From the IMG/VR virus record IMGVR_UViG_3300025121_000014, positions 32,001 through 96,000 of that record: a DNA stretch of 64,000 nt. The stretch is one strand, 5' to 3'. Every line of letters begins with the position of its first letter. Within the stretch, counting starts at the first letter, position 1. This document shows, piece by piece, positions 3,838-27,846 of this stretch. Below the pieces are notes generated by a model. It worked only from the letters and a program-made list of their open reading frames with translations, was not told the origin of the DNA and ran no database searches. The position numbers and the translations under genes were made by a program. Source of the stretch: a virus (taxonomy: Duplodnaviria; Caudoviricetes).

Positions 3838-6800
3838 ATGTTAGACTTTAAATTATTCGAAAATGTTGCTCAGGCTAAGTCTTTTTTAAGACAAAATAAT
3901 ATTCCTGAAACCGATTCATTATACCAATTAGTAAGAAAATCATTTAAAGGTAAAGAAGGTTATGTCGGTTGGATTACTAAATTAATATATCGTATGTTAG
4001 CTTTTGAATCTAACGGAAAATATTTGGCACTTGATAAAAATTCTTTGATTGATAGTACAGTTAATAGTAGTAATATTATTAATAATACTTTAAATCGCGC
4101 TAAAAGACAGTTTGATATATTACTTGATTATTTATCTGAAAAAGAAGTTATAGATAAATTAGAAAAACCTGTAATTGAATATGAAACATTCGAACAATTT
4201 GTTGATGCCTTTATAATTGCTGAAGATAAACTTAAAGCTAAAAGAATTTATGATGAATTTCCTGCTGAGCAAAAGAAATTAATTAATATAAACATTGATT
4301 ATAAATTATTAAAACAATTACATGATAAAAAAAATAAAAAAATATTTATTAAAAAAATATCATCGTATCATGATAGAAAAAATTTAATATCTAGAATAAC
4401 TGCATTTATTAATGAAGTAATCGATGATAATTTTAATAATAAAATAAAATATTTAAAAAATAATAAATTAGAAATTGTTCACCAGAGTGAAAAAGATAAT
4501 ATTATTATTGCTAAAATATTTAACTACCAACAATGTTCAATAGTAGGTGCTGAAACATCTTGGTGTATAGCAAGAGATTCTAATACTTATAGTAATTATA
4601 TAAAGAACGATTTAGATAGACAATATATTATTTATTTAACTGATAAACCACCAACAGATAATGAAAGTATTATTGGTGTTACTTTTAAATTAAATTCTTA
4701 TTATACTGCACATTATAAAGATGATGCATATTTAACTGAATCAAAACTTAATGAATTGTTTGAACAAAGAAAAGTTGATAAAAAAATATTTAAAATTAAA
4801 AAAAGTGAAATAAATGAACATAATATTAAAAATGTTAATCCATATGGTTTATTTAAATTAGGATTTACAAAAGATGAAATTATAAATAAAAAAGGTAAAG
4901 AATATTTAACTGGAATGCAAATTTTATTATTAAAAGAAATGGGGTTTACAAAAGATGAAATTAAAGAATATTCTCATTTTAGAGATCCATTAGAAGATAT
5001 AAAAAAAGTTGGATTTACAGAAGAAGAAATAGAAGAGTTGGTACCTAATTTAAAACAAAAAAATATTGAAGAATTTATAGAAGCTAAATTATCAAAAGAA
5101 TTTATAATGAAATATATAAATTTCGATACTTTATATGTTCATAGTTTATTACATATGTTTACAAAAGAAGAAATTTTAAATAATAAACAAGTATATGTTG
5201 AATCAGAATTAGATAGTTTTAATCAAGAACAAATAAAAAAATATGATTTAAATAATAAAGTAAGATTAGATGGTTATACAATTAGTGTAGATGAATTAAA
5301 AAAATATATTAAAACTGGTGAAATTTATAAAATTATAAATAGATTAGAACCAAAATCAATATATTTATTTAAATTAATTAATGCTGGTTTAAATTTAAAC
5401 GATTTACAACAAATAAAGAATCTTTATGAAAAATTAATTGATATTGATCGAGATTTTTATAAAAAACATTGTTATAAACCAAAAGAAGAAACGAAAACGA
5501 ACGAATATAGAATATATAGTTCGAATACATTTTATTTAGATCATACTATAAAAAAATTAAAAATATATAATATTACACCAGATGATATATCATTAGAAAA
5601 ATTAGAATATGTGTTAAATGGAATATCACATTTGGCGGTTCCAAGAGTTGTTAACTTTTTAATAGAACAAGAATATTCTTATACTGAACAAGAAATTAAA
5701 AATTTTTTACTTAAAATTATACATATTAATGTTGATAAAAAAGAACTATTTAAAAGTGGCATAGAAGCTGGTATAAATTTTTATCCAGAATTAATGATAT
5801 TTTATCTTGAAAATAACGATGTAATTGATCCACGTGAATTTGATACCGCTAAAAATCTTCTAAGCGAAAAATACCCAGATAAATGGGAAATTATTGAAGA
5901 TAAACAAAAAAAAGCTATATTTATTAAACATACATTACGTCAAGCAGGATATTTGGCTATAGGTTCACAATATGATGATTTTGGTGATTGGGATACTGAA
6001 CGCAAAGATTATGCATTAAACTTAAATTGGAAAAATGAAATGAAAGGTGAAAATGAATATTTAGCATATGTAGCAACAATAATAATTTTAGCATTAAATG
6101 ATGATTGGGAAAGTTTATATAAATTACCACAATGGGATTGGGGAGATAATACAACTAATGTTGGTGATAGTTTAGATAATTATAAAGTATATTTATCTTA
6201 TTTAGTTAGAACTATATTAGGTGCAAATGTTACAAAATCATATTCAAAATTTAGAGAAACAGACGAATTAACAAAAAATCAAATAAGTAAAATATATACT
6301 TGGATAATGAATTATGTATGGCCAACTATTGAAAATAAAGAACAACAAGAACCAGAATTACAATTAGCTTATTATCTTCTTGATAAAAAAAGATGGAATG
6401 ATTATTTACAAAGAACTAAAAAGAAAAAAATGAATTATTTTCGTAAAGATAGTTATTGGATATCATACTCTGATAAAAAAATCGGAACAAAAGAAATAAA
6501 AATGACATATAGATTTTATAACATTGCACAAGTTGTAGAATATTTATGTAATGATAGAAAATATATAAATTCACCATATTATAAAAGTATTCCTAAAACA
6601 AATATGGAATTAGATAAATTATTATTTGAATTCACAGATGGAATAACAATGGGTAAAAAAGAATTAAAAAAAACAATATCAACATTATATCGAATAAATA
6701 TTTGGAATGATAATAAAGATAGAACAAAAATAATAAATGATATATTTAATAAATATATTCCTATAATAAATGAAAGTATAATGACCAATTATGATAACTT

Positions 6801-6846
6801 TATATATAATTTAAAATTTAATAATCCTAAGAATGTTAGACTTTAA
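3838..6846 (+). CDS. Large hypothetical protein (1002 aa) with an SWCIA (PcfJ-like) motif and CTS-like N-terminus
   Basis: Long ORF containing CSIVGAETSWCIARD...QYIIYLTD. N-terminus is MLDFKLFE. Confidence 0.8.
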   Translation: MLDFKLFENVAQAKSFLRQNNIPETDSLYQLVRKSFKGKEGYVGWITKLIYRMLAFESNGKYLALDKNSLIDSTVNSSNIINNTLNRAKRQFDILLDYLSEKEVIDKLEKPVIEYETFEQFVDAFIIAEDKLKAKRIYDEFPAEQKKLININIDYKLLKQLHDKKNKKIFIKKISSYHDRKNLISRITAFINEVIDDNFNNKIKYLKNNKLEIVHQSEKDNIIIAKIFNYQQCSIVGAETSWCIARDSNTYSNYIKNDLDRQYIIYLTDKPPTDNESIIGVTFKLNSYYTAHYKDDAYLTESKLNELFEQRKVDKKIFKIKKSEINEHNIKNVNPYGLFKLGFTKDEIINKKGKEYLTGMQILLLKEMGFTKDEIKEYSHFRDPLEDIKKVGFTEEEIEELVPNLKQKNIEEFIEAKLSKEFIMKYINFDTLYVHSLLHMFTKEEILNNKQVYVESELDSFNQEQIKKYDLNNKVRLDGYTISVDELKKYIKTGEIYKIINRLEPKSIYLFKLINAGLNLNDLQQIKNLYEKLIDIDRDFYKKHCYKPKEETKTNEYRIYSSNTFYLDHTIKKLKIYNITPDDISLEKLEYVLNGISHLAVPRVVNFLIEQEYSYTEQEIKNFLLKIIHINVDKKELFKSGIEAGINFYPELMIFYLENNDVIDPREFDTAKNLLSEKYPDKWEIIEDKQKKAIFIKHTLRQAGYLAIGSQYDDFGDWDTERKDYALNLNWKNEMKGENEYLAYVATIIILALNDDWESLYKLPQWDWGDNTTNVGDSLDNYKVYLSYLVRTILGANVTKSYSKFRETDELTKNQISKIYTWIMNYVWPTIENKEQQEPELQLAYYLLDKKRWNDYLQRTKKKKMNYFRKDSYWISYSDKKIGTKEIKMTYRFYNIAQVVEYLCNDRKYINSPYYKSIPKTNMELDKLLFEFTDGITMGKKELKKTISTLYRINIWNDNKDRTKIINDIFNKYIPIINESIMTNYDNFIYNLKFNNPKNVRL

Positions 6847-6997
6847 ATTATTAGAATATTTAAATGCTTATAAAATAGATTATATTAATGATAATGATAG
6901 AAAAAGAAAACTTAAAAATATAGTTAATAATATATTCCAATTAAAAGAAAATACTATATCTAATTTTAATTTATTTAAGCATAAATTATTGATTTAA
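6833..6997 (+). CDS. 54-aa ORF starting with a copy of the preceding gene's 5' end (not in ORF track)
   Basis: Reads MLDFKLLEYLNAYKID...HKLLI*. Bases 6833-6852 are identical to 3838-3857 (atgttagactttaaattatt). Confidence 0.5.
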   Translation: MLDFKLLEYLNAYKIDYINDNDRKRKLKNIVNNIFQLKENTISNFNLFKHKLLI

Positions 6998-7324
6998 TTT
7001 TTTTCTTGGTATATAAGATGGTTCTTTTATACCATATTCTATAATTGATTTATATATCGGATTATTAAATTTATATAAAGTATTATCAGTATCAAATTTA
7101 GTTGTAATATATTTTTGTATATATACAAAATCTCTTTGAATATATGTTAATCTTTTATAATTTAAACTTATAAATATACATACAGGATAGTAAGAATTTG
7201 CTCTATTTCCGGAAAAACCAAGCCAATAAAAACCCTTATTAATAAGATATTTTTGTAGTTCATAATATTCATATTCATTAAAACACACAACTGCAATTGA
7301 TCCATATTCATATTTATATATCAT
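6986..7324 (-). CDS. Small paralogue 3 of a tandem family (C-terminal P-x-Y-x-P-R motif)
   Basis: MIYKYE...EPSYIPRKKLNQ, with ATGA overlap with the upstream paralogue. Confidence 0.75.
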   Translation of the reverse strand: MIYKYEYGSIAVVCFNEYEYYELQKYLINKGFYWLGFSGNRANSYYPVCIFISLNYKRLTYIQRDFVYIQKYITTKFDTDNTLYKFNNPIYKSIIEYGIKEPSYIPRKKLNQ

Positions 7325-7662
7325 ATCTTATATCTTGGTATATAATTTGGTACTTCAGTACCATATTTCAATATATGTTTAAGAATATTAATATTATTTT
7401 TATCATATATAAAAGTATTTATAAAATAATTATTATTTCTATTTCTGAAATTTATATATTCTCCTATATTTTTAAAAGAACTACCTTGCATGACGTGATA
7501 TGTAACAACTTTTTTATTTAAATAAATTAATAAATAAATTGGAAGTACATATGGAGTACTTAACATAACTGATATATTATTATCTACGAGAATGTTTTTA
7601 ATATAATTATAATCGATTATATCTATAACATTATATACTATAACATCATATTTAAATTTCAT
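7321..7662 (-). CDS. Small paralogue 2 of a tandem family
   Basis: MKFKYD...EVPNYIPRYKI, with ATGA overlaps on both sides. Confidence 0.75.
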   Translation of the reverse strand: MKFKYDVIVYNVIDIIDYNYIKNILVDNNISVMLSTPYVLPIYLLIYLNKKVVTYHVMQGSSFKNIGEYINFRNRNNNYFINTFIYDKNNINILKHILKYGTEVPNYIPRYKI

Positions 7663-8036
7663 TTTCTTTTACTTCTTGGTCTATAATCAGGAGTAGCAAT
7701 TTTAATACCTAAATTTATTATGTTTTTTAAAATGCTTAAATTATTTTTTTTATTAATTTTTTTATAAACAGTAGGATCTATATTATAATATATAATATTT
7801 CCATGTTCGTCATTAAATGTTGAAATTTTATTATTTCGTAAAAAATATCCATATATTGGATAATATATCGATATTTTTTTAACTATTTTAATTTGTAAAA
7901 AAATTACTAAATAATCATTATTAGATTCATAATTAGAAGTAAAACGATATCCTTTATTTATAAGATACGTTTTAATATCTTGAAAATCATCGTAATCTCT
8001 TGGTTTATAAATTACTACATTGTACTTATATTTCAT
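7659..8036 (-). CDS. Small paralogue 1 of a tandem family
   Basis: MKYKYN...ATPDYRPRSKRK. Confidence 0.75.
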   Translation of the reverse strand: MKYKYNVVIYKPRDYDDFQDIKTYLINKGYRFTSNYESNNDYLVIFLQIKIVKKISIYYPIYGYFLRNNKISTFNDEHGNIIYYNIDPTVYKKINKKNNLSILKNIINLGIKIATPDYRPRSKRK

Positions 8037-8137: not shown

Positions 8138-9037
8138 TCATTTTAATCTATATCCTTTTTTAGTTTTTTCTAATATATTACAAATTGGTGCATTATTTTT
8201 AGCAAATTCATATCCATCTTTCCATAATTTAGTCATTTCTTTTTTATTAAAATTTAATGAATTTAAATTTGGAATATATGGAATACGATAAATATTTAAT
8301 TGTATATTTCTTTGTGTTCCTTCTAATTTACTTATTGATATATCATTGTTATTTATTTCAAAATTCATTAATGATATTGTTTTACTTGCAATATCAAATA
8401 TATTTTTAGATTTTTTGGTATCTTCTCTATATTCTGATGATAAAATAAAAATGTCGATTACATCACATTTTTCATCTATTGCTTTTTGAACTGGTATAGG
8501 TTCTAATATCCCACCATCTAAATATTCACATTCATTTTTTACAACAATATCAAAAGCAATAGGAACACTTGCTGATGCTAACATCCATTCACAAAAATCA
8601 AAATATGTTTCACGTCCTAATTTTTTATATTCTACTATCGATTTAGTCATATTAGATACCGTAATAAACACATCTTTACTATTTAAACTATAATAATCTT
8701 TTACGGTTAATATTTTTTTTATTTCTTTTAATAAATTAGATGCATCACCTAATGATGTTTTACCTAAAATTATTCTTTTTATTGCATTGAAAACTTTTAA
8801 TTTACCTTTTGAATTGTAAGGCACTACACTAAAAATATCACTATTAGTAACATTTGTATATTTATCTTTTAATTCATCTATTTTTCCAAGTGATATAAGA
8901 GGAATTAATAACGCTCCCGTACTTGTCCCAACCAATACATCCCAATCCATATTTTTTTCTTTCATAAGATATTCTACACAACCACCTGCAAATGAACCTT
9001 TTACCCCTCCCCCTGAGATTACTAATCCTCTTTTCAT
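8138..9037 (-). CDS. Patatin-like phospholipase
   Basis: Intact GGGVKG, GTSTG (GxSxG nucleophile) and DGG motifs. Confidence 0.92.
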   Translation of the reverse strand: MKRGLVISGGGVKGSFAGGCVEYLMKEKNMDWDVLVGTSTGALLIPLISLGKIDELKDKYTNVTNSDIFSVVPYNSKGKLKVFNAIKRIILGKTSLGDASNLLKEIKKILTVKDYYSLNSKDVFITVSNMTKSIVEYKKLGRETYFDFCEWMLASASVPIAFDIVVKNECEYLDGGILEPIPVQKAIDEKCDVIDIFILSSEYREDTKKSKNIFDIASKTISLMNFEINNNDISISKLEGTQRNIQLNIYRIPYIPNLNSLNFNKKEMTKLWKDGYEFAKNNAPICNILEKTKKGYRLK

Positions 9038-9276
9038 ATTAATATTATTATTTTAATATTATATATTAAATTAAAAAACTTTATATTATTTTGATAATAT
9101 AAAATTTAATTATTTAAATGCGATAATTTCAATCCAAATAATTTAAAAAAAGATAACTTCAATATGAAAACAATTAACAAAGTCAACTTAAACACAACAA
9201 AAAATCCTTTAATCTTTTAATAGAAGATATAAACAATTACTTAGAATTAAAATTCAAAACTTATAATAATCCATCA

Positions 9277-9933
9277 ATGTTCAATTCAATACATTGGTAT
9301 GATATGTTACAAACAATGAGTGCTATATTAGATAGATACTACAATATAGAAGATGTTATAGATGATTTTTATTATAATTCAGCAGTAACATATAGTGGGG
9401 GGTTTGTAGCATTATCTGATAAATATAAAGAAAGATTTATAAAAGATGTATATGAAGTATATATTATAACTTCATATCCACAGAGGATAAATAAATTGAT
9501 AAAGGAAAATAAATTATGGTTTAGTGATAAAAAATTAAAATATATTTATCATATATTATATGAACACACTAATTATGGTATATTAAGAAAATTATTTATT
9601 AATTATACTTATGGTTTAATAATATCTAAAAAATCAAAAATATATTCAAATATAGATTTAGGATTAGAAGTATCTGATTATTATAATAAATTATTCAAAA
9701 AAATTAGTGAAGAAGTTGATTATATCTATATCGATACTGATACTTTTTATGTAAAAGAAAGTGAAGTAGAAAAAATTATAAATCTTTTTTTAGATAATGA
9801 TATTATTAATTACGAATCAGATGGACCTTATAATTATATATTTTTTAGGAAAAAATCATATATTAAATTTGATAGATATACTATTCTTAGAAAATGTGGA
9901 ATAGAAGAAAAAGAAAATCCCCGTTATTATTAA
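9277..9933 (+). CDS. Minimal, probably inactive family-B DNA polymerase palm-like protein
   Basis: Motifs in PolB order: YSGGFV, ITSYP (motif A without Asp), RKLFINYTYG (motif B), YIDTDTF (motif C), KKSY. The frame is open from 9178, so the real start may lie upstream. Confidence 0.6.
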   Translation: MFNSIHWYDMLQTMSAILDRYYNIEDVIDDFYYNSAVTYSGGFVALSDKYKERFIKDVYEVYIITSYPQRINKLIKENKLWFSDKKLKYIYHILYEHTNYGILRKLFINYTYGLIISKKSKIYSNIDLGLEVSDYYNKLFKKISEEVDYIYIDTDTFYVKESEVEKIINLFLDNDIINYESDGPYNYIFFRKKSYIKFDRYTILRKCGIEEKENPRYY

Positions 9934-9947: not shown

Positions 9948-10652
9948 TTATTTTTCTAATTCTTTTAACATTTTTATTAATTCAGGTTGTGGATGGCAAT
10001 CTGATTTATCTGATCTGTAAGAAGTATGTCCCCAAACACCAGATTTTCCTAAAAGAGCATCTCTTGAAATATCCCACATATCATCATTATAAGTTAAAGG
10101 AATATTAAATTTATCTTTCCAAAACAATAATAATTGTCTTGTAGTTTCAATTTGTTCATCTGTATATTTTTCAAAATATTTAAAACCTCTAAATGGTTTA
10201 TCATATATTTGAATATTATTAATATCTTTATATTCTTTATTATATGCATCATAATATTTACCATCATCTTTTAATACAAGTGGTCCTAATGAATCTAATT
10301 CAACACCAATAGATGCTTGATTAAGTATTTCATTATTAGCAATATACTGTCTTCCGTTACTATTTGTTTTAAATATAAAATCAATATCATTAGCTTGAAA
10401 TACAGGAACTTTTACACCTAAATGATGAGCCCATGCCGAATTTGTAGAATAACATTGGTATGGAATACCTTTCCAATCAATAATAATATGTGTTGATACT
10501 CTAGCATCATCACTTAACCACCAATTTATATCACCTTGTACTCCTCTATAACTAACCGTATGATGCAAAACAATTTGTTTTTTTTCTGTTCTTTCTTTAT
10601 AATATTGTTCTTCAGGATAATCCACACTTACAATTTTATCTAATATGCTCAT
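9948..10652 (-). CDS. N-acetylmuramoyl-L-alanine amidase (Amidase_2), probable endolysin
   Basis: IVLHHT, STHIIID, AWAH, SIGVEL and GH...KSDCHP Zn-amidase motifs. Confidence 0.88.
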   Translation of the reverse strand: MSILDKIVSVDYPEEQYYKERTEKKQIVLHHTVSYRGVQGDINWWLSDDARVSTHIIIDWKGIPYQCYSTNSAWAHHLGVKVPVFQANDIDFIFKTNSNGRQYIANNEILNQASIGVELDSLGPLVLKDDGKYYDAYNKEYKDINNIQIYDKPFRGFKYFEKYTDEQIETTRQLLLFWKDKFNIPLTYNDDMWDISRDALLGKSGVWGHTSYRSDKSDCHPQPELIKMLKELEK

Positions 10653-10669: not shown

Positions 10670-11182
10670 TTATATTATCTTAAATTTAGATAATTTTTCT
10701 TTTATATTTTCATTATATTTAATTCTAATTAATTTAATATTATTATCTTTACAAAAATTATTTTTAATATTATCTAATTTTTTTCTATATTTAAAATCTT
10801 TTTGACCTCCCCAATGTTTTATAGGTTTAAAATGTTGTTCTCCGTCAAATTCTATACACAAATTATCTTTTGGTAAATAAAAATCAAACGGTAATATTCT
10901 TTTATATTTACATTTACCAAATTTTTTTTGTGTTTCAAATAGAATGTTATTATTATTTAATAAATTTTTTATTTCTCTTTCTCCCTTACTTTCATTACAT
11001 ATAGGGCATCCTGATCTATTTAAATGACTATTTGGAGTTTGTTCAAATTCTCCATGTTCTTTACATATAATTTTAATTTTAGTTTCGTTATTTTTATAAT
11101 TTACTAATGAGTAATCATATTTATTACTATGTATATTTTTAGCTCTTTCTACAATTTCTTTTGTAGTTAATTTTTTTGACAC
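10670..11182 (-). CDS. Homing-type endonuclease: DUF723-like Zn repeat plus PD-(D/E)xK domain
   Basis: YDYSLVNY...IICKEHGEF...HL...GCPIC, followed by LPFDFYLP...IEFDGEQH...LIRIKY. Confidence 0.8.
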   Translation of the reverse strand: MSKKLTTKEIVERAKNIHSNKYDYSLVNYKNNETKIKIICKEHGEFEQTPNSHLNRSGCPICNESKGEREIKNLLNNNNILFETQKKFGKCKYKRILPFDFYLPKDNLCIEFDGEQHFKPIKHWGGQKDFKYRKKLDNIKNNFCKDNNIKLIRIKYNENIKEKLSKFKII

Positions 11183-11732: not shown

Positions 11733-12212
11733 TTAAAATGTTGATGAGTCTTCTAAATCACTATCAGAATCTGGTAATGTTTTAGCTGTTGCTTCCTCAC
11801 TTGTTTCTGAGTCTAATTCAGAAAATAATTCAAGAATTTTATCTTCGTTTATATCTTTTACATTAACATCTTTTCCTAGTGTTCTATAAAGATTTCCATC
11901 GCTATCATATTTTTTAACTTTAATGTAGCAATCTGTTAATTGGTCTTGTGCTACATCTTTTAATGAAATAATTATATATACTTGATAATGAAATTGATCA
12001 TCATCAAAATCAAACACTAAATTTTTATCTGGTTCATTTAAATTACTAATATTAATATCCCCTAGTGTAGCTCCATTAAGTGATAATGATCCATTTATAA
12101 ACCAATCATTAATATTTTTCGTTAATTCTTTAAAGAAAGATTGAATCATATAATCAGGTGTTTCAATATATTTCTCATTAAGGAATTCAGAATATTTTTT
12201 TATATTTTTCAT
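11733..12212 (-). CDS. Acidic hypothetical protein with CTS-like N-terminus (MKNIKKYSEFLNE)
   Basis: 159-aa ORF with the shared N-terminal motif. Confidence 0.75.
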   Translation of the reverse strand: MKNIKKYSEFLNEKYIETPDYMIQSFFKELTKNINDWFINGSLSLNGATLGDINISNLNEPDKNLVFDFDDDQFHYQVYIIISLKDVAQDQLTDCYIKVKKYDSDGNLYRTLGKDVNVKDINEDKILELFSELDSETSEEATAKTLPDSDSDLEDSSTF

Positions 12213-12302
12213 TTATTAATATTTTTGTTTGATTATATATATAAAATTGTATTTCATTAATTTATATATAAAAAAAATAGACTTAAAAAAAATAATATTT
12301 TT

Positions 12303-12506
12303 ATGAAAAAACAAGAAAGAAAGAAAGTAGAACATTATAGCATACTTAAAATGATATTACGAATTTTAACACTTGCAATTGCAATTTGGGCATTAGTCAT
12401 AGCATATCAAGCTAAACAAACAGCCGAATGGGTGAATATTAAACAAGATAATGTTATTGAACAATTATTATTTAATAATAATTCACCAATAATTAAAAAA
12501 AATTAA
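12303..12506 (+). CDS. Small single-pass membrane protein
   Basis: Basic N-terminus followed by hydrophobic ILRILTLAIAIWALVIAY. Confidence 0.65.
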   Translation: MKKQERKKVEHYSILKMILRILTLAIAIWALVIAYQAKQTAEWVNIKQDNVIEQLLFNNNSPIIKKN

Positions 12507-12519
12507 GTTTATAATAATT

Positions 12520-12885
12520 ATGAAAAATATAAAACAATTTGAACAATTTATTAATGATAATTTTAATAACCCGTTTAAAAGAAAAAACATAATTAGAATA
12601 ATTGAAAATCCACCAAAAGGTTCAATATATTCTGAACCACGAGAAAACGAGTTAGAATTTATTAAGTTAACTAATTTAGATAATGGTAGATGGAAAATAG
12701 AATTTAAAGATTATACTATGGAATATGGTTGGGGATTTTTTATTTATAATCAATTAGATAATGAAATTGAAGATATTGAAAGATATGGCTATGAACAACA
12801 ACAAATACCACATTATTTAGAACCAACAGAAGATACAATTATAGATATTAAAAAGATTATTCAAAAAAATAAAAAGAAGGTATGA
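12520..12885 (+). CDS. Hypothetical protein with CTS-like N-terminus (MKNIKQFEQFIND)
   Basis: 121-aa ORF with the shared N-terminal motif. Confidence 0.7.
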   Translation: MKNIKQFEQFINDNFNNPFKRKNIIRIIENPPKGSIYSEPRENELEFIKLTNLDNGRWKIEFKDYTMEYGWGFFIYNQLDNEIEDIERYGYEQQQIPHYLEPTEDTIIDIKKIIQKNKKKV

Positions 12886-13352
12886 AAAATATAAAAGGTT
12901 TTAATCAATTTTTAAATGAAGATGGTTCCACAACTGCTGTTGTAGGATCAGGAACTGCCGTAAGTGGTCCATCTTTTTCAAGTGTATCTGTTGCAGGAGT
13001 TAGCATAGACGGTGGGCATTCAACACAAGGGAGTAGTGGTGTATCTACATTAGGCAATGTATCTGGTATGGGAGATGTTGTTTCTGCTCAACCATCTGAT
13101 ACACCAGGTGATGTTGCTGGTAGTACTAAAGGATCAGGTGATATTGGACAAACTTTAAAACCATTTACTAAATCATTTCCTAATACAAGAAAGAAGAAAA
13201 AAGAAAAAAAGAAAAAAACTAATTCTGAAAAAGGAGCACAAATAGATAAATTTTACACTTCTAAATATTCAGAAAAATATATAAAATCTGGAAATGTAAT
13301 TCAAGATTGGAAAACATTTAATAAAGAAAAAAATGGTAATAAAAAAGTTTAA
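12882..13352 (+). CDS. G/S/T-rich low-complexity protein with CTS-like N-terminus (MKNIKGFNQFLNE)
   Basis: 156 aa with a G/S-rich middle and Lys-rich tail. ATGA overlap with the upstream gene. Confidence 0.7.
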   Translation: MKNIKGFNQFLNEDGSTTAVVGSGTAVSGPSFSSVSVAGVSIDGGHSTQGSSGVSTLGNVSGMGDVVSAQPSDTPGDVAGSTKGSGDIGQTLKPFTKSFPNTRKKKKEKKKKTNSEKGAQIDKFYTSKYSEKYIKSGNVIQDWKTFNKEKNGNKKV

Positions 13353-14467
13353 TATTTTTATAAATGAAAATATAACTAGTTTACTTAAAGGAAAATCTAA
13401 TGATGAAATGATTAAAGCATTAGAAGGTTTATCAAATAATAAGAAAATAGAATATATAATTGCATATCAATTAGATTATGATTTATTACCAAGAGATAAA
13501 AATGGTAGATGTATTTATCATAATAATGAAGATGAATATGGTGCTTATAGTTGTAATCTAACTGGTTATGGGATAAAAAAATTACCTGATAATTTAACAG
13601 TTCATGGTAATCTGATTTGTAATAATAACCCAGAATTAACTGAATTGCCTAAAGGATTAATCGTTAATGGTGATATGTATTTTTTTGATTATCCTAAAGA
13701 ATTAAAATTACCACATGATATACAATTAAGTGGAAAATATTATCATAGTATTAAAGGTAAAAAATTAATAATAGAAAATATAAAAGATTTACTTAAAGGT
13801 AAATCAGATGATGAAATTGAAAAAAAATTAAAAGTAAGTTCTGACGAAAATATAGCTCGTGGTGTGTTTAGTTATAATTTACCACTTAAATATTTACCTA
13901 AAAATTATGATAAATTAGTAAAAGATATTATTAAAGAAATAAAAGAACTTGTTAAAGAATATGGTGGTAATATTACTGTATATGATTTGGGTGTAGAAAG
14001 TATTGATTATGAAGGTGAAACACATTATTATGCAATATCTGTATTAACTACTGATTATGTATGGGTAGAGGAATATCTATTAACTGATTTTACTAAAAAT
14101 AGAACATATGAAGCACCATATGAAGAATTAAATTATTATCAATTAAGTGAAATAAAAGAAACAATAGAATGGGCAATTGGATCAGGAAATTTAGAACATA
14201 AATTATATGAAAGTGTTAAAGATTTATTAAAAGCAAAATCATATGAAGATGTTGAAAAACAATTAATTGGTTTATCGGATTTAGAAAGAATTATAAAAAT
14301 AGAAGAACACGATTTACCAAAAGAATATTTACCAAATAATTATAACGATATTAAAAAAATACTTATAAATGGTATTAAAAGCAAATTAAAACAGTTTAAT
14401 AATGTTTTAAATTTTTTAAATGATTTTGATTTACAAGACGAATTATATTTATACCCATATATTTTAT
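13333..14467 (+). CDS. 5' part of a modular LRR-containing CTS-like protein, interrupted by the TnpB element
   Basis: Three xE-(N/S)(I/V)xxLLKxKS modules and LPDNLTVHGNL repeats. It rejoins 15764-16308 in frame when the IS is removed (559 aa total). The annotated ORF runs on into the IS left end to 14562. Confidence 0.7.
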
Positions 14468-15763
14468 ACATCTTGTCAAAGAAAACCACCAAATCTTCAG
14501 TTTGGTGGATGAATTTGACTTCCAAAAACGGAAAAAACAGACTTTTAACTTTTAATATATAATTTAAAGGAAAAATAAAATATCTTTAAAAATGTTAAAA
14601 TCATATAAATACAGAATATACCCAAATCAAGCCCAAAAAGAACTTCTTTCAAAGATTTTTGGTCAAGTAAGATTTGTATATAATCTTGGTTTAGAAACTA
14701 AAATAACAGCATATACAGGAAACAAAAAAAATATTGATGTGTTTGATTTAAATAAGCAAATTAAAGAATTAAAAGATAATGAATGTGAATGGTTAAAAGA
14801 AAGCCCATCACAAGCACTTCAAATGAGTATGTCTAATCTAGATAATGCTTATACAAATTTCTTTAGAGGAAAAGGTTTTCCAAAATTTAAGAATAAATAT
14901 TCAAAACAATCATTTCAACTACCACAAGGTGTTTGGTTATCAGATAATAATAAACAAATTTTTATACCGAAATTAAAATTCACCGATATAGATTTACATC
15001 GTGAATTTAAAGGCGATATTAAAACTGTAACAGTAAGTAAATCAATAACTAATAAATATTATATATCAATTTTAACAGATAATTTACAACCTAAACCAGA
15101 AAAAAAACCAATTAAGTTAAATACAACAATTGGAATTGATTTAGGGATTAAAGATTTTGCTATCACTTCAGATGGAAAGAAATTCAAGAACCACGATTTC
15201 TTTAAATCTGCTTTAAGAGAACTAAGGGTTGAACAGCGATCTCTTAGTAGGAAAAAGAAAGGATCAAACCATTACAATCAACAAAAAATGAAAGTCGCTT
15301 TAATACACGAACACATTAAAAATCAAAGAGAAGATTATTTACATAAAATCAGTAAATATTTAGTTGATAATTATGACACTATATGTATTGAAAATCTTGG
15401 TGTATCTAATATGATTAAAAATCATAAATTATCTAAAGCAATATCAGATATGGGATGGAATAAATTTAAATCTATGCTTGATTATAAATGTGAATGGTAT
15501 GGTAAAAATTTAAGTGTGATTGGTAGATTTGATCCGTCAAGTAAATCATGTAGTTCTTGTGGGACAATAAATAAAGAATTAACATTAAAAGATAGAGAAT
15601 GGGTTTGTAAAGAGTGTGGTGTTAAACACGATAGGGATATTAATGCTGCAATAAATATAAGAAATTTTGGGTTGAGGAACCAACCTAGCGTCACACAAAG
15701 TGAATGGTTGCATTGTGCTTGTGGCGTAGAAACACACAAATCTTCAGTTTGTGTGTAGTTCAT
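14468..15763 (+). mobile_element. IS200/IS605-family TnpB-only (IS1341-like) element, 1296 bp
   Basis: Preceded by TTTAT (14463-14467). Left-end hairpin gtcaaagaaaaccaccaaatcttcagtttggtggatgaatttgac; right-end hairpin gaaacacacaaatcttcagtttgtgtgtagttcat. No tnpA. Confidence 0.85.
14592..15758 (+). CDS. tnpB: TnpB RNA-guided endonuclease
   Basis: N-terminal YKYRIYP HTH, GIDLG, ICIENL, CSSCG...CKECG and HDRDINAA. The stop codon lies inside the right-end hairpin. Confidence 0.95.
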   Translation: MLKSYKYRIYPNQAQKELLSKIFGQVRFVYNLGLETKITAYTGNKKNIDVFDLNKQIKELKDNECEWLKESPSQALQMSMSNLDNAYTNFFRGKGFPKFKNKYSKQSFQLPQGVWLSDNNKQIFIPKLKFTDIDLHREFKGDIKTVTVSKSITNKYYISILTDNLQPKPEKKPIKLNTTIGIDLGIKDFAITSDGKKFKNHDFFKSALRELRVEQRSLSRKKKGSNHYNQQKMKVALIHEHIKNQREDYLHKISKYLVDNYDTICIENLGVSNMIKNHKLSKAISDMGWNKFKSMLDYKCEWYGKNLSVIGRFDPSSKSCSSCGTINKELTLKDREWVCKECGVKHDRDINAAINIRNFGLRNQPSVTQSEWLHCACGVETHKSSVCV

Positions 15764-16308
15764 CTACTATAAGTAAAATTGTTAAAATAAAACAATATGG
15801 TTTAGATAAAAAATATATGCCATCAAAAGATGAAATTAAAAAAGAATTTGATAATTGGGGTAATAGTATACATAGTACAGATTTAAAAATTTATCATATA
15901 ATTATATTAGAATTACCATTTGATTTATTACCTATAAGAAAAGAACCGAGTAAATTAAAAACAATTTATAAAGGGAATAAAAATAAAATTATTTGTAGTA
16001 CAGAGTTAGATGTAAGTTATAAAAATATAACTAAATTGCCAGATAATTTAGTTATTTATGGTGATTTGAATTGTAGTAGTAATCAATTAACTGAATTACC
16101 AAAAGGATTAGAAGTATTTGGAAATTTAAAAGCAAGTTATAATAATTTAACCGAATTTCCAGATGATACAATAGTACACGGATATTTAGATATAACTGGT
16201 ACTAAAATAACTAAAATACCTAAAACAGCAGTAATTTGGGAAGCTATATATTCTGATTATAAGTTAAATTATTTTAACCCAAAATCTGATGAAGAACATA
16301 TATTATAG
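15764..16308 (+). CDS. 3' part of the IS-interrupted LRR protein
   Basis: STISKIVKIKQYGLDKKYMPS matches the helical module of neighbouring paralogues, and ITKLPDNLVIYGDL-type repeats follow. The annotated GTG at 15751 lies inside the IS end. Confidence 0.7.
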
Positions 16309-16311
16309 AAT

Positions 16312-17016
16312 ATGAAAACATTTAAACAATTTATTAATGAAAATGTAAAAGATTTACTAACAGGAAAATCTGATGATGTTATTAGTAAAGAATTAGATAA
16401 ATTAAAAATACAAGATAAATTAAGATATATTCAAAAATATGATTTATCTGATAAATTTATGCCATCTGATAAGGAAATTAAAAATTATTTAAATAAATTC
16501 AGCACATATCAAATTATTGATAAAATACATTATTTAAATTTACCTAAAAAATTTATGCCAACTGATGAAGAAATTAAAAAATTAAAACCTTCGAAATTAT
16601 TAGAATTTATATCAAGAGGATGTATTTCTAAAAAATTTGAACCTACAAAAAAAGATTTAAATACATTTATGGAAAATATACCTAATGATATTAAAAATAT
16701 ATTGCAAATATATATTGATGCTGACGATAATTATGAATCAACAGGATTTTTTTTAAATTTTATTGATCAATTTACTACTTGTAAAAATTATTATAAATAT
16801 ATAATAGATATTGTTAATACTCACATAGAAGATTATTCTGACCATGAACCTAATCCATATTCACATATTAAATCTGATCAAGAAAAACTAAATTTTATGG
16901 ATTCTGATTTACTAATAGAATTTGTTGGTAATGGTATTTTTTATATTGATAGTAACACATATAATCATTTTATAGAAGATTTGAAAAAAACTAGTTGGAA
17001 TGATATAGTGGAATAG
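16312..17016 (+). CDS. Hypothetical protein with CTS-like N-terminus (MKTFKQFINE-NVKDLLTGKS)
   Basis: 234 aa. This is the closest match to the T4 IPII/IPIII CTS MKTYQEFIAE. Confidence 0.8.
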   Translation: MKTFKQFINENVKDLLTGKSDDVISKELDKLKIQDKLRYIQKYDLSDKFMPSDKEIKNYLNKFSTYQIIDKIHYLNLPKKFMPTDEEIKKLKPSKLLEFISRGCISKKFEPTKKDLNTFMENIPNDIKNILQIYIDADDNYESTGFFLNFIDQFTTCKNYYKYIIDIVNTHIEDYSDHEPNPYSHIKSDQEKLNFMDSDLLIEFVGNGIFYIDSNTYNHFIEDLKKTSWNDIVE

Positions 17017-17053
17017 ATTTAACAAGTTAACGAAAATATTTATTAATTTTTTT

Positions 17054-17091
17054 AAAAATCTATTTTTAATATATATTAAAAATAGATTTTT
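17054..17091. repeat. Perfect 38-bp palindrome centred on a TTAATATATA motif
   Basis: aaaaatctatttttaatat|atattaaaaatagattttt. Confidence 0.9.
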
Positions 17092-17095
17092 TGCA

Positions 17096-17539
17096 ATGAT
17101 TTATAAATTTAGTGAATTTGAAAGATTAAATGAGGAAACAAAACCAAGTAAAATATATAAAAATGTTATGTTTGATGATTACGAAATTAGAATTGGTCGT
17201 AATAGTCAGGTCAATGATATATTAACATTTGAATATGCTAATGATAATGATTTATGGTTTCATGTTAGTGGATACCCTGGTTCACATGTTGTAATAAAAG
17301 TTAAGGAAAATCAAGAAACACCAAACAAAGTTATTTTAGAAGCTTCTAGATTAGCTATTTATAATTCTAAGGCAAAAGGAAAAGGATTAGTTAAAGTAGT
17401 CTATACAGAAAGAAAAAACGTTACTAAGACCGATAAACATAATCCAGGGCAAGTTAGTGTTGATTATAGTAAATCAAAATTTATAAAAATAGAAGTTTTA
17501 AAAAAATATAATATAAATGAAACATATAAAAATATTTAA
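17096..17539 (+). CDS. Stand-alone NFACT-R (DUF814, RqcH-type) RNA-binding domain protein
   Basis: IRIGRNSQVNDILTF...DLWFHVSGYPGSHVVIK...ASRLAIYNSKAK...VVYTERKNV. CTS-like N-terminus MIYKFSEFERLNE. Confidence 0.85.
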   Translation: MIYKFSEFERLNEETKPSKIYKNVMFDDYEIRIGRNSQVNDILTFEYANDNDLWFHVSGYPGSHVVIKVKENQETPNKVILEASRLAIYNSKAKGKGLVKVVYTERKNVTKTDKHNPGQVSVDYSKSKFIKIEVLKKYNINETYKNI

Positions 17540-18050
17540 AGAATTTTTTGATAAAGAAAAATTAGATAAAATACCAAATCAATATTTAAATACAATTAAT
17601 GAAAATGTAAAAAATGTTCTTCTACCTAAATCAGATGATGAAATTAAAAAAGAATTATCTAAATTAGATGTATACGATAGAATAGAAGTTATTACTAAAA
17701 ATAATTTATCACCAGAATATTTACCATCAAAAGAAGAAATTGCAAAAGCACATGAAGAAAAATATAATTCATATAGCGATAAATGGTCAAAAGGATATTT
17801 TAATACTGAAACACTTAAAGTTAAAACACCATATTGGAATATTTATATTCCAAAATGTAAAAGTTGTGATGAAGTTACCGAATTAAAAAATTGTTTTATA
17901 GACAGACAAATGATAGGAAATGTTTATCAAACATTATGTAATTGTAGTAAATGTAATAAATATATATTACTTGACGAAGACAAATATGATGATTTAATGA
18001 GATATATAGAAAATAATAAAGAAGTAAAAGGAAATAATGATAAACTATAA
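17517..18050 (+). CDS. CTS-like protein with a C-terminal Zn-ribbon
   Basis: MKHIKIFKEF...INENVKNVLLPKSDDE; CKSC...CNCSKC. Confidence 0.75.
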   Translation: MKHIKIFKEFFDKEKLDKIPNQYLNTINENVKNVLLPKSDDEIKKELSKLDVYDRIEVITKNNLSPEYLPSKEEIAKAHEEKYNSYSDKWSKGYFNTETLKVKTPYWNIYIPKCKSCDEVTELKNCFIDRQMIGNVYQTLCNCSKCNKYILLDEDKYDDLMRYIENNKEVKGNNDKL

Positions 18051-18084
18051 AAGGTTTAAATAAATTAAAATATTAGTATAGTTA

Positions 18085-19140
18085 ATGAATACATTTAAAC
18101 AATTTAATGAAAATATAAGAGATGTTCTTTTACCTAAAAGTAAAGAAGAAATTGGTAAAGCATTACAAAGATTTACAAATAATGATGATTTAATAAGATA
18201 TATAATAAAATATAAATTGCCATATGAATTTTTACCTAGAAATGAAGAAGGTAGATGTGTTATTAATAAAAATCTTTATTATGCTTCTTCAAATATTGAA
18301 ATATTACCGGATAATTTTACTGTTAATGGTATGTTAGATATATCATATTCTTCAATAAAAGAATTACCAGATGGTTTAATAGTTAGAGATGATTTATGGT
18401 GTTTAGATACAGATATAACTAAATTAAAAGATGATACAATAATTGGAGGTAAAACATTCTTTAAAACAACTTATAAAGTATATGAAAGTGTAAAAAATGT
18501 TCTTCTACCTAAATCAATTGATAAAATTAAAGATGCAATGAAAGGTAAAAATATTTATTCTAAAATATATACAATTAAAAATACACCAGATTTAGAAAAA
18601 ATTTTTAGATATCCATCTAAAAAAAAATTATATGATGTAATAAATAAACCATTTGAAAATTATGAACAAGTTTATAAAGATATAATAGATGATAAAAAAA
18701 TCAAATTTAGTAAAGTAAGAATGAATGATGTAGAATATTTTCAGTTATATCAATTAATAGTTGATTATATTAAAGTAATATGTAACACCGAAAAAAAAAT
18801 ATTTGAATTTGCACCTAATACACATGTTATTAGAGTTTTTGGTGTAATTTTAAATCATTTGGAATCTGAATATATATTTAAACCTGTTTATAAGGAAAAC
18901 GGATTTGATATTTTTAAATTAGCAAAAAAAATTTTTAATAGAGATTTATTATTGCAAAACGGTCATATAGAAGTAAATGATGCCTATAAAAAATATACAA
19001 AAAGTCAAATTAGAATAGATATTAATTCAATTAACTATAAATTTAGTGATATAACTTCACCATATTGGTCAAATTTACATGGTTGGGAGATAGAAAGAAA
19101 ATATGTTAAGAAACACGAAAGAAAATTCGGTAAAACATAA
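18085..19140 (+). CDS. Two-module CTS-like protein with LRR repeats
   Basis: MNTFKQFNENIRDVLLPKS, IEILPDNFTVNGML repeats, and an internal second module YESVKNVLLPKS. Confidence 0.78.
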   Translation: MNTFKQFNENIRDVLLPKSKEEIGKALQRFTNNDDLIRYIIKYKLPYEFLPRNEEGRCVINKNLYYASSNIEILPDNFTVNGMLDISYSSIKELPDGLIVRDDLWCLDTDITKLKDDTIIGGKTFFKTTYKVYESVKNVLLPKSIDKIKDAMKGKNIYSKIYTIKNTPDLEKIFRYPSKKKLYDVINKPFENYEQVYKDIIDDKKIKFSKVRMNDVEYFQLYQLIVDYIKVICNTEKKIFEFAPNTHVIRVFGVILNHLESEYIFKPVYKENGFDIFKLAKKIFNRDLLLQNGHIEVNDAYKKYTKSQIRIDINSINYKFSDITSPYWSNLHGWEIERKYVKKHERKFGKT

Positions 19141-19172
19141 TTAATATATAAATAAAAAATAATTGTGTTTTA

Positions 19173-19565
19173 ATGAAAAATATCAAAAACTTTGACAAAT
19201 TTATAAGTGAAAGTATTACTAATTTATTAACGTCTAAACCAAACGATGAAATCATTAAAAAACCTATAGGATATATGACATATAGAATATTAAAATTCGT
19301 TAGTGAACATCCAGAAGGTATTAGACGTAAAGATTTAATAAAAATGATATTTGATATAAAATACGAAGACACTTTAATAACTTATGATACAAGTAAACAT
19401 TCTAGGTTTTATAGTAGTTTCTTTTCTAATACTAATTTATTAAATAAAACAGGTAAAGGAAATAATGCTAAATGGTATATAAACGCAAATGGTTTAGATA
19501 AATTAAAATATTATGAAAAAAAATTTAAAGATTATGATATTGAAAAAATTAAAAAAATAATTTAA
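19173..19565 (+). CDS. CTS-like protein with a possible winged-helix domain
   Basis: MKNIKNFDKFISE; ILKFVSEHPEGIRRKDLI...WYINANG. Confidence 0.7.
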   Translation: MKNIKNFDKFISESITNLLTSKPNDEIIKKPIGYMTYRILKFVSEHPEGIRRKDLIKMIFDIKYEDTLITYDTSKHSRFYSSFFSNTNLLNKTGKGNNAKWYINANGLDKLKYYEKKFKDYDIEKIKKII

Positions 19566-19570
19566 ATATT

Positions 19571-21079
19571 ATGTTACTTAAAAAATATAATGATTTTATG
19601 ATTGACAAATTACTTTTAGAATCATTAAATGAATTTAAATTTATTTTATCAGGTCGTTTAAAAAATATATTAAAAAATATAAATAGTGAAATATCTGATG
19701 CATTACTAGCATTACATAATGATGATGATTATAAAAGTAAAAAAACGTTTATAGATATTAATGAAAGAGATGATGAAACTTTAACATTAATTCAAGCAAA
19801 TAAAGCTACTGAAATATTAAAAATAGATAATCAAGAATATTTAGATAATAATCCTTATTCAATACAGCGATATAAAAAATTAAAATCTGATCATGATGTA
19901 TATAATAAACATAGAATATCCGTAAGAGTAGGTCGTTTAATTAATTATTTATTTCCTAATAGATTTCCTAGTGCTTCACCAACAGATATTACCAAAAAAT
20001 CAAAAGATATTGAAAATTTTGTTAGAATGTATAAATCTATTGTTTTTCAAAACGAAAGATTTAAATTATTAGATTTGGTAAATGGTGATAATATATCATA
20101 CTGGTATGATTGTAATAATTATGATAGTAGTGATTCTGGATCATTAGGTAGTTCTTGTATGGCAAGTGTATATGAAGAATATTTTGAAATATATGTTAAT
20201 AATCCAAATACTATACAATTATTAATATTATATTCTGATAATTCTAAATCATATATATCTGGAAGAGCCTTAGTTTGGACATTATATGAACCAGAAAATG
20301 GTAGAAAATATATGGATAGAATTTATACAAATGATAGTTCAGATGAACAAGTATTTATTGATTATGCTAAAGAAAATGGTTGGTTATTTAGATCATCACA
20401 AGGTTGGAATAATACTGATATTGTTGATTCATTAACAAATCAAACTATTAATACGAATTTAATGGTTCGTACAACTAAAGACGATTATAGTTATTATCCT
20501 TGGATGGATACTATGTGTTATTATAGTCCGGAACTTGGAATTTTATCTAATAAATCAAATAATTTACGACTATATCTGCAATCACAAGATGGTTCAAGTT
20601 CAACAAATAGTGATTATTATGAAAATGAAGATGATACTTATATATTTAGTAAATATGAAGGGGAAGATATACTTCGAAGAACCGCAGTATATTGTTATTA
20701 TGGAGATGATTGGGTTCATACATCAGTAGCCAAAAGAGTATTTAATGCGGGATTAGTAACAAATCCAGATGGGACTAATAGAATTTATTCTATTCCTGTA
20801 CATCCTGATGTTGTTAGATCATATATTCCTGATATTAATTATGATAAACATTTTCCAAAGAAAAAATGTATTTGGTCAATTTATTTAAATGCTTGGATTT
20901 TTAAAGATAGTAAAGTAAAAATATATCTAGATGTAAATAGAGAAAAATTTGGATATGACCACAAAAAACGTAAAGATATAAATTTTGGAAAAGTAGGTAG
21001 AGTTCATTATGTAATTGAATTACTTGAAAAAAATGAAAATGATCAATGGAAATTAAAAAAAGAAAATGAAAAAGTTTAA
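19571..21079 (+). CDS. Phage hypothetical protein with SCM/RALVW/MDRIY/YPWMDT motifs and CTS-like N-terminus
   Basis: 502 aa. Motif set recalled from large-phage hypothetical proteins; function unknown. Confidence 0.75.
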   Translation: MLLKKYNDFMIDKLLLESLNEFKFILSGRLKNILKNINSEISDALLALHNDDDYKSKKTFIDINERDDETLTLIQANKATEILKIDNQEYLDNNPYSIQRYKKLKSDHDVYNKHRISVRVGRLINYLFPNRFPSASPTDITKKSKDIENFVRMYKSIVFQNERFKLLDLVNGDNISYWYDCNNYDSSDSGSLGSSCMASVYEEYFEIYVNNPNTIQLLILYSDNSKSYISGRALVWTLYEPENGRKYMDRIYTNDSSDEQVFIDYAKENGWLFRSSQGWNNTDIVDSLTNQTINTNLMVRTTKDDYSYYPWMDTMCYYSPELGILSNKSNNLRLYLQSQDGSSSTNSDYYENEDDTYIFSKYEGEDILRRTAVYCYYGDDWVHTSVAKRVFNAGLVTNPDGTNRIYSIPVHPDVVRSYIPDINYDKHFPKKKCIWSIYLNAWIFKDSKVKIYLDVNREKFGYDHKKRKDINFGKVGRVHYVIELLEKNENDQWKLKKENEKV

Positions 21080-21140
21080 ATAATTTATAAATGAAAATTT
21101 AAAATATAATAAGTATAACTTAAAAATAAATGAAAAATAA
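21066..21140 (+). pseudogene. Degenerate CTS stub (MKKFK*FINEN...)
   Basis: Near-identical to 21404ff (MKKFKQFINEN) but with CAA changed to TAA. Total 25 codons. Confidence 0.55.
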
Positions 21141-21395
21141 ATGAAAAGCATAAAAAAATTTAATAATTTCTTAAATGAAGGATTAAGCACAAGTAATAAA
21201 TTAGAAATAAAATATGTTAATATACATGGTGAAGAAATGATATTAAAATATGATGGAGTAGAAAGTACATTTTTTCATAGTGACATAACTGACATACCTA
21301 TTCCCTTACGATCTACTACTTTAGATGATTTTATTTTAAATAATGAAGAACAAAAAGTAATTGATTGTTTTTTATCTTTAGTGGATATAAATTAA
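21141..21395 (+). CDS. Small CTS-like protein (MKSIKKFNNFLNE)
   Basis: 84-aa ORF with the shared N-terminal motif. Confidence 0.7.
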   Translation: MKSIKKFNNFLNEGLSTSNKLEIKYVNIHGEEMILKYDGVESTFFHSDITDIPIPLRSTTLDDFILNNEEQKVIDCFLSLVDIN

Positions 21396-21403
21396 AAAAG
21401 AAA

Positions 21404-21934
21404 ATGAAAAAGTTTAAACAATTCATAAATGAAAATATTAAAGATTTACTTAAAGGTAAAACAGAAGAAGAAATAAATAAAAATATAATTAATTTAAGTT
21501 CTTATGAAAAATTAAAATTAGCAAAAAAATATGAATTTAAATTATCAGATGTCGATGAAAAAGATGCTATTAAATCTGCGCTTATATATAATCCTGAAGA
21601 ATTAATTTTAGATTTAAAATATGATTATGATGATTTATCTAAAATAGTTTCTGATGAAGAAATTAAAAAAGGATTAAAAAGTATTACAAAACGTTTATTT
21701 AACATTATGAAAGGTAATAACAGAGAAAATGCATTTGAAGAATTAGAAAAAGTAGTATTTTATCTTTTTAAAAATGGATATCTATATGATAACACAGATA
21801 CACTTGGTAATTTATGGTTTAAACATAAAACATATGATAAATATAAAGGTGGTAGCACTACTTGGAATGGATATAATACATTAAGTGATGCGATAGATTA
21901 TGTTACTAGGATGCAAAAATTAAATAATTCATAA
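21404..21934 (+). CDS. CTS-like protein (MKKFKQFINE-NIKDLLKGKT)
   Basis: Start moved from the track's TTG at 21365 to ATG 21404, where the motif begins. Confidence 0.75.
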   Translation: MKKFKQFINENIKDLLKGKTEEEINKNIINLSSYEKLKLAKKYEFKLSDVDEKDAIKSALIYNPEELILDLKYDYDDLSKIVSDEEIKKGLKSITKRLFNIMKGNNRENAFEELEKVVFYLFKNGYLYDNTDTLGNLWFKHKTYDKYKGGSTTWNGYNTLSDAIDYVTRMQKLNNS

Positions 21935-27792: not shown

Positions 27793-27846
27793 ATATTGAA
27801 AATTAATTTTAATATATAAGTATATATTAAAAAATAAAATGTAAAT

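Follow-up and report, generated by a model that had tools for sequence, protein, structure and literature searches.

A stand-alone family-B DNA polymerase palm of about 250 residues in AT-rich huge phages

Introduction

Family-B DNA polymerases (PolB) are among the best-studied enzymes. The smallest familiar members, those of the phi29 type, have about 570 aa and to our knowledge always carry exonuclease and thumb domains. A much shorter open reading frame in a phage sequence displays PolB signature segments and has a tyrosine in place of the motif A aspartate. The question raised by this locus is whether so small a protein has the PolB fold, and if so whether it is a polymerase, a piece of one, a protein put to another use, or the remains of a gene. 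The DNA analyzed, referred to here as the window, is a stretch of 64,000 nt that represents positions 32,001 to 96,000 of the IMG/VR record IMGVR_UViG_3300025121_000014. The protein and its relatives are called mini-PolB.

The mini-PolB gene and its surroundings

The GC content of the window is about 19-34%, and about 21% around the mini-PolB gene. The window looks like part of a very AT-rich, huge T4-like phage, and among its other contents are giant virion-type ORFs, homing endonucleases, TnpB/Cas12f genes, a patatin gene and an amidase gene. The mini-PolB gene is flanked by a patatin-like gene at 8138-9037 (- strand) and an Amidase_2 gene at 9948-10652 (- strand).

The mini-PolB reading frame is open on the + strand from position 9178 to a stop codon at 9931-9933, and the earliest ATG, GTG or TTG in it is the ATG at 9277. 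This start yields a 218-aa short form (9277-9933, ATG to TAA) that comprises a pre-palm helix, the palm and short fingers and has its C-terminus at the palm/thumb border. The in-frame stretch upstream of the ATG (9178-9276, + strand) has no start codon; its homologue in full-length relatives is the N-terminal helix. It reads QLKHNKKSF... where the closest relative, P0002, has QLAINRKSF..., and it forms a helix (residues 8-28, pLDDT > 90) in the AlphaFold2 model described below.

A scan for sigma-70 promoters around the mini-PolB gene gave sites that are not above chance. An ATATATA[AG]A box recurs 22-30 nt upstream of many + strand ATGs in the window (e.g., those at 3838, 23703, 29673, 30247, 35047, 50611 and 52381) and is possibly a T4-late-like promoter. 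Two sets of related sequences in the window are recorded here as well. Three tandem paralogous ORFs of 112, 113 and 125 aa lie at 6986-8036 (- strand) and have a common C-terminal P.Y.PR.K ending (YIPRKK, YIPRYK and YRPRSK). Several copies or fragments of the phrog_559 homing-endonuclease family are found at 10670-11182 (- strand), 26887-27858 (- strand) and 21991-22062; members of the same family also flank the mini-PolB gene in the related loci L001 and L007.

Homology to PolB and the predicted fold

As a single sequence the window protein has no match in Pfam, PHROG or the PDB. However, a profile built from 19 family members matched PolB structures in the PDB with motifs A, B, C and KxY all in register. 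The E-values are 1.1e-10 for Pfu, about 1e-10 to 1e-9 for Tgo and KOD, 1e-9 for phi29, 6e-7 for Pol alpha and 9e-4 for RB69. The alignment with Pfu consists of two blocks: profile positions 43-114 correspond to Pfu 351-417, which hold the GG hairpin and motif A, and positions 140-253 correspond to Pfu 463-605, with motifs B, C and KxY.

The structure predicted by AlphaFold2 for the 9178-9930 reading, on the family alignment, has a pLDDT of 89.6 and a pTM of 0.85. In a Foldseek search with this model the top matches are all PolB (best E 4.7e-6), and VIA-align also gives PolB as top matches. Model residues 21-244 superpose on Tgo 335-610 with a Z of 11.4 and an rmsd of 3.1 Å over 188 residues, and a similar span of KOD and Pol alpha (about 335-610) is superposed as well. 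The 218-aa form taken by itself also folds in ESMFold (pTM 0.71).

The span covered includes the pre-palm helices, the palm and a shortened fingers hairpin whose first helix is short. The protein begins at the equivalent of Tgo residue ~335 and shows no match to PF03104, and thereby lacks the exonuclease and N-terminal domains. At the other end, the chain stops about 23 residues past KxY, just after a K/R-G-[LIM]-K sequence that is equivalent to the PolB "RGLE" (the RGLE/RRD border, Tgo ~610). This is the palm/thumb border, and the model on Tgo shows no thumb domain. The gathering score of PF00136 is not reached by the window protein, for which this family gives no match; only two of the 19 members reach an E-value of 0.003.

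The original prediction, made from the sequence alone, had described a miniature PolB palm with all signature segments in order within one small protein, with no exonuclease domain and with the motif A aspartate lost. Each of these points is borne out. All the quoted strings were located, the profile comparison and the structure prediction both give PolB (E 1e-10, Z 11.4), the exonuclease domain is missing as described above, and the motif A aspartate position is occupied by Tyr62. The model is a confident one with PolB as its top matches, where failure to predict a PolB fold had been named as grounds for giving up the idea. The resemblance to PolB is beyond chance.

Motifs and their conservation

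In the 218-aa protein a hairpin, YSGGF, at residues 39-43 precedes motif A. The motif A-like strand YIITSYP (9460-9480, + strand; residues 62-68) has Tyr62 at the position of the catalytic Asp, which is five residues before the Tyr of YP, and has the conserved Tyr67 and Pro68. Motif B, KLFINYTYG (9589-9615, + strand; residues 105-113), contains Lys105, Asn109 and Tyr112-Gly113. Motif C, YIDTDT (9727-9744, + strand; residues 151-156), displays Asp153 and Asp155, and the KxY motif KKSY (9850-9861, + strand; residues 192-195) has the nearly invariant Lys193.

Conservation was assessed in 30 members, i.e., 22 database proteins, seven proteins from fetched loci and the window protein. Asn109 is present in all 30, and Asp155 in every member that covers the region. 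Asp153, Tyr67-Pro68, Lys193 and a Lys or Arg four residues ahead of Asn109 are near-universal. Even between members with only about 25% identity these core motifs are conserved. The motif A position is the exception: it is acidic in 12 of the 30 (10 Glu and 2 Asp) and is otherwise Tyr, Ser, Val, Asn, Ile or Thr. A tree inferred by maximum likelihood separates two well-supported groups (95/96). The window protein belongs to a clade of nine members (support 99/98) from which the motif A acid is entirely missing. The other group has the acid in scattered members, which points to repeated loss. The pattern suggests that the motif A carboxylate is dispensable in this family.

In PolB enzymes both catalytic metals are coordinated by two aspartates, that of motif A and the second one of motif C. 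With this motif A ligand missing, canonical polymerization is unlikely for the clade of the window protein. What the family has kept is the DTD of motif C, the K, N and YG of motif B, the steric-gate YP, and KxY. In PolB these residues hold the metal and the incoming nucleotide in place and make contact with the primer end. Judged from the alignment, the nucleotide-contacting residues appear to be under long-term constraint.

Occurrence of the family

An exhaustive phmmer search of 1.84 billion protein representatives found 20 clusters, all of them with sequences of 96-287 aa and none with long forms. P0002, the closest relative, has 257 aa and is 78% identical over the full length of the window protein. 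Members beyond these 20 clusters come from collection scans and megaphage searches. In the collection scan with the family alignment A4 only L001, L007 and L008 were found, and a scan of GTDB genomes with the same alignment gave no match. The window protein alone has no match in IMG/VR or in metagenomes, and no match to it or to P0007 was obtained by tblastn among 50,697 phage records. The nearest neighbours in the ESM Atlas are viral clusters of 219-368 aa.

So far the mini-PolB is found only in very AT-rich, T4-like huge phages. The literature on minimal, thumb-less or stand-alone PolB offered no description of such a protein. The mini-PolB proteins, with about 220-290 aa, make up a small and apparently undescribed phage family.

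State of the window copy

P0002 begins with MKTIKHVGQLAINRKSF (MKTIKHV...). In the window the remnant of the ancestral start is an 18-codon ORF, MKTINKV..., at 9164-9220 (+ strand), which is in a different frame from the main ORF. The frame of the main ORF has a TAA at 9175-9177, just upstream of QLKHNKKSF. Since MKTINKV and QLKHNKKSF are in different frames, a frame change near 9182-9186 has disconnected the ancestral start. There is no homopolymer at 9182-9186. An A_AAA_AAT heptamer is present at 9199-9205 (+ strand), in register with the 9164 frame and within the 40-nt overlap of the two frames; about 0.05 such in-register sites are expected by chance. If a -1 slip occurred on this heptamer, a protein of about 256 aa would be produced. 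Genes in the window have A-rich leaders without a Shine-Dalgarno sequence, so re-initiation at the ATG at 9277 is also conceivable. The product, if one is made, would be the 218-aa short form from this ATG or the -1 slip product.

Short forms with all motifs are found in other lineages, namely P0018 (221 aa), L016 (210 aa) and L015 (216 aa, after an upstream TAA). Thus the N-terminal helix appears to be dispensable, as these natural short forms are without it. A different type of variant is P0005, of 96 aa, in which 51 residues are identical to the window protein and the remainder is unrelated to anything in the window; here either the gene has been disrupted or the contig is chimeric.

Pseudogene decay among homologues had been named in the original prediction as evidence that would count against it, and the finding is a mixed one. 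An apparent disruption is seen in one near-identical variant, N-terminal truncation in several members and the 5′ frameshift in the window copy; on the other hand the core motifs have stayed conserved down to ~25% identity. Some decay may have taken place in the window lineage.

Relation to the split replicative polymerase

In L001, a relative from IMG/VR, the mini-PolB gene lies beside a homing endonuclease, which is followed by an ORF of 506 aa. The product of this ORF comprises the exonuclease domain of a PolB, a motif A with the true DFASLYP sequence, and the first finger helix. Six uncultured phage records of 462-735 kb contain genes that are 33-60% identical to it. Five of the six (LR745206, LR756500, LR756501, LR756502 and LR756504) were examined for polymerase genes. 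All five have an N-terminal PolB half (PolB-N), an open frame of 476-515 aa that has DFASLYP and ends at the finger tip with finger helix 1. All five also have a C-terminal half (PolB-C), which has about 408-572 aa and contains the thumb as well as motifs B and C. In LR756504.1, for example, PolB-N has 495 aa and PolB-C, 280 kb away, has 408 aa, begins at motif B and displays YVDTDS, KKMY and the thumb; the mini-PolB gene is at a third locus. PolB-N and PolB-C together constitute a full-length enzyme of gp43 size without any contribution from the mini-PolB.

With the family profile, four of the five megaphages are found to have a mini-PolB gene, located at a third locus, and the fifth is found to have none, which makes the mini-PolB gene an accessory, non-essential one. 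The protein spans the split point and overlaps parts of both PolB-N and PolB-C. The suggestion in the original prediction that it is one part of a split enzyme is therefore not upheld, as complete PolB-N and PolB-C are present in all five and the mini-PolB is a third, overlapping gene. A recent duplication of the phage's own PolB was also considered and is ruled out, as hhalign of the mini-PolB against the megaphage's own halves gives an E of only 0.03-0.04; the mini-PolB is an additional paralogue with a remote relationship to them. By analogy with these relatives, the phage from which the window derives probably has PolB-N and PolB-C as well.

Two further arrangements were observed in these genomes. 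In LR756500.1, a 462-kb phage, PolB-C matches two open frames of 261 and 317 aa about 2 kb apart (248786-252051, - strand), and this polymerase may be in three pieces. The mini-PolB of LR756501.1, a 735-kb phage (L014, 943-2319, - strand), has a C-terminal extension of about 170 aa with an acidic aromatic tail, DDDLSDLFQGLFEE, which we take to resemble the clamp-binding tails of T4-type polymerases.

C-terminal tags and neighbouring genes

The mini-PolB genes of LR745206.1 (L009) and LR756502.1 (L016) are situated inside arrays of small genes. A C-terminal tag, R..K[IL]..[IL](GI), is found in 10 of 28 listed ORFs in L009 and in 7 of 12 in L016, and never internally. The mini-PolB proteins of these two loci bear the tag themselves (REDKLIELGI and RNRKLDDILC). 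Judged by an R..K[ILV]..[IL] tag in the last ~15 residues, the relatives L015, L016 and P0017 are tagged and about 26 of the 30 members are untagged; a position inside an array of tagged genes is seen for L009 and L016. The window protein, which ends in ...RKCGIEEKENPRYY, has no tag, and its neighbours in the window are untagged too. In L003 (LR756504.1) several listed ORFs also have an R..K[IL]..[IL](GI/LL) ending.

No neighbour is conserved across the family loci that would point to a pathway. The ORF of 1002 aa at 3838-6846 (+ strand) was considered because its homologues are 1-6.5 kb from the mini-PolB gene in L009 (where it has 1284 aa) and in L007. However, the homologue is absent from four other megaphages, including three of the four that carry a mini-PolB, and a conserved functional neighbourhood is not established. 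The 1002-aa ORF itself has no match in Pfam, PHROG or the PDB; it contains a G.ETSWCI..D stretch.

Many ORFs in the 11733-21934 region of the window (e.g., those at 11733 on the - strand, 12520, 12882, 16312, 18085 and 19173) start with MKNIK.F..F[IL]NE, which resembles the T4 capsid-targeting sequence. A T4-like capsid-targeting N-terminus on the mini-PolB was rejected, as MKTINKV and MKTIKHVGQL do not fit this pattern.

Possible functions

The kept nucleotide-contacting residues, together with the missing motif A acid, favour a binder over a replicase. The mini-PolB would be a stand-alone PolB palm with pre-palm helices and shortened fingers that is carried beside the two-piece replicative PolB. 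It may serve as a small, non-replicative accessory protein, its ligand being either a nucleotide-metal complex or the 3′ end of a DNA. In the window copy, a frameshift has cut off the ancestral start, and the short form or the slip product would be expressed. As a whole, the explanation of the mini-PolB as a non-polymerizing protein that binds nucleotide and metal or a DNA end is considered to have an even chance of being correct, and from its sequence the protein is most likely not a processive templated polymerase. A repurposed nucleic-acid-binding protein and a decoy for defence systems, both put forward in the original prediction, are each compatible with the conservation pattern. What counts against the binding explanation are the signs of decay in the window copy (the 5′ frameshift and the P0005 variant) and the lack of a conserved neighbourhood. 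In addition, an invariant DTD would be expected of an enzyme rather than of a mere binder, and may reflect catalysis with an unusual metal ligation.

Such an enzyme could be an active minimal nucleotidyltransferase, i.e., a distributive or template-independent polymerase, a terminal transferase or a small-molecule nucleotide synthase, that uses the motif C aspartates with backbone or water ligands, or with the Glu where it is present. Conservation of Asp153/Asp155, Asn109, Lys105, Tyr67 and Lys193 at ~25% identity argues for activity, as do the acidic residue (Glu or Asp) that 12 of 30 members have in motif A and the tolerance of PolB active sites to variation, piPolB being active without the first motif C Asp (PMC7544198). 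The absence of the dual-metal-ligating Asp from the window protein and its whole clade, the predominance of Glu over Asp where an acid is present, and the lack of a thumb to hold duplex DNA make an active enzyme a rather unlikely, if serious, alternative. The signs of decay lead to another reading, in which the window copy is a decaying pseudogene that no longer has a function. The frameshift between the ATG at 9164 and the body of the protein, the divergence of P0005 after 51 identical residues, the megaphage copy with an upstream in-frame TAA and the megaphage without the gene all agree with it. Yet 218 codons have remained open in a region of 21% GC where stop codons are frequent, every residue conserved in the family is intact, identity to P0002 extends over the full length, and other lineages have intact short forms that start at the same place, so that the pseudogene is judged improbable. 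The least probable alternative, and a very improbable one, is that the mini-PolB is a third piece or an alternative C-terminal module of the fractured replicative enzyme and partners with PolB-N. Its position near PolB-N in L001, with only a homing endonuclease between, is suggestive, and if PolB-N provided the motif A acid, its loss from the mini-PolB would have no consequence. However, the mini-PolB has a motif A strand of its own and so overlaps PolB-N, and it has no thumb. In the four megaphages that carry it, it occupies a place separate from either half, with distances of about 80-510 kb to PolB-C and, in two of the four, of about 360 kb to PolB-N. In all five, including the megaphage that has no mini-PolB, PolB-N and PolB-C together make up a full-length gp43-like enzyme.

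The tagged arrays bring up a further alternative, that the mini-PolB is a decoy or delivered cargo, a mimic of the polymerase core that occupies host immune sensors or factors of rival phages and belongs among the small tagged proteins of megaphages. The mini-PolB genes of LR745206.1 and LR756502.1 lie in such arrays and are tagged themselves, and P0017 is tagged too. But the window copy, its neighbours and about 26 of 30 members are untagged, a mimic need not retain the invariant DTD and Asn, the mini-PolB sequence is nearer to archaeal PolB and phi29 than to T4-type gp43, and no sensor is known; a decoy is doubtful on these grounds. A wider version of the idea, held to be similarly doubtful, is a megaphage-wide strategy of miniature copies of the phage's own essential proteins, some of them addressed by tags to a common site, to which ligands or host sensors of the real proteins would bind instead. 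If this is true, a polymerase-core mimic could soak up chain-terminating or signalling nucleotides or jam a polymerase sensor.

A conserved, autonomously folding palm-fingers core of 200-250 aa would define the minimal natural PolB fold. It would show, as an experiment of nature, which residues of the active site are important once the motif A aspartate is gone. It would also be a polymerase-derived addition to the small proteins with which huge phages are armed, a repertoire that is poorly understood. If the mini-PolB is catalytic, it would be the smallest PolB-type nucleotidyltransferase known to us; if not, it would be a new kind of exapted polymerase module.

Comparison with known systems

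The mini-PolB has the same fold and the same order of motifs (GGF hairpin, SxYP, KxxxNxxYG, YxDTD, KKxY) as the PolB cores of archaeal and eukaryotic type, such as Tgo, KOD, Pfu and Pol alpha, and as phi29. It differs from the Tgo, KOD, Pfu and Pol alpha cores in its size of ~250 aa, in the absence of exonuclease, N-terminal and thumb domains, in the replacement of the motif A Asp by Tyr in the window protein, and in falling below the PF00136 threshold. Among the split, inactivated or minimal polymerases in the literature, no description was found of a stand-alone PolB palm without thumb or exonuclease domain. It should be noted that a survey of PolB discarded sequences of less than 200 aa (PMC7544198).

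Structural look-alikes of similar size were found in BFVD by Foldseek, with E-values of 4.6e-6 to 7.7e-3, and are leads only, given TM-scores of ~0.4-0.5. They are a "divergent family B DNA polymerase" of 290 aa from Dikerogammarus haemobaphes virus 1, a crustacean virus, and uncharacterized proteins of Aeromonas phage 65.2 (241 aa) and Klebsiella phage PMBT1 (291 aa). No sequence link between these and the mini-PolB was found with the family HMM. In Aeromonas phage 65 the HMM detects only an open frame of 393 aa (profile positions 132-209), which is probably the C-terminal half of a PolB.

The phages that carry the mini-PolB split their replicative PolB at the finger tip, as is also the case for gp43A/gp43B of T4-related Aeromonas phages (PMC2988022) and DNAP-N/DNAP-C of PhiKZ (PMC13648687). 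A split at this point is compatible with activity, both in the natural gp43A/43B of Aeromonas phage 25 (PMC2988022) and in an engineered Pfu (PMC3061061). In contrast to the members of these pairs, the mini-PolB is neither half; its sequence extends across the split point and its gene is at a third locus. For T4-like jumbo and mega phages, a pared-down polymerase core beside PolB has a precedent in the minimal split Pol III alpha of the group 2.2 jumbo phages (Iyer et al. 2021, PMC7824862). That protein is from another superfamily (C-family, Pol-beta-like nucleotidyltransferase), and the mini-PolB is not mentioned in that paper.

Proteins derived from PolB that have lost a catalytic residue and have taken on non-polymerase roles, as may be the case for the mini-PolB, include the C-terminal module of Pol epsilon (PMC2669801), poxvirus F12 (PMC4304020), herpesvirus UL8 and archaeal B2 (PMC7544198). 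Structures of UL8 (PDB 9neb_C and 9nn2_C) are among the fold matches of the model. These four proteins have the full exonuclease-plus-polymerase architecture and have generally lost motif C, whereas the mini-PolB is a quarter of their size and has kept the DTD of motif C invariant.
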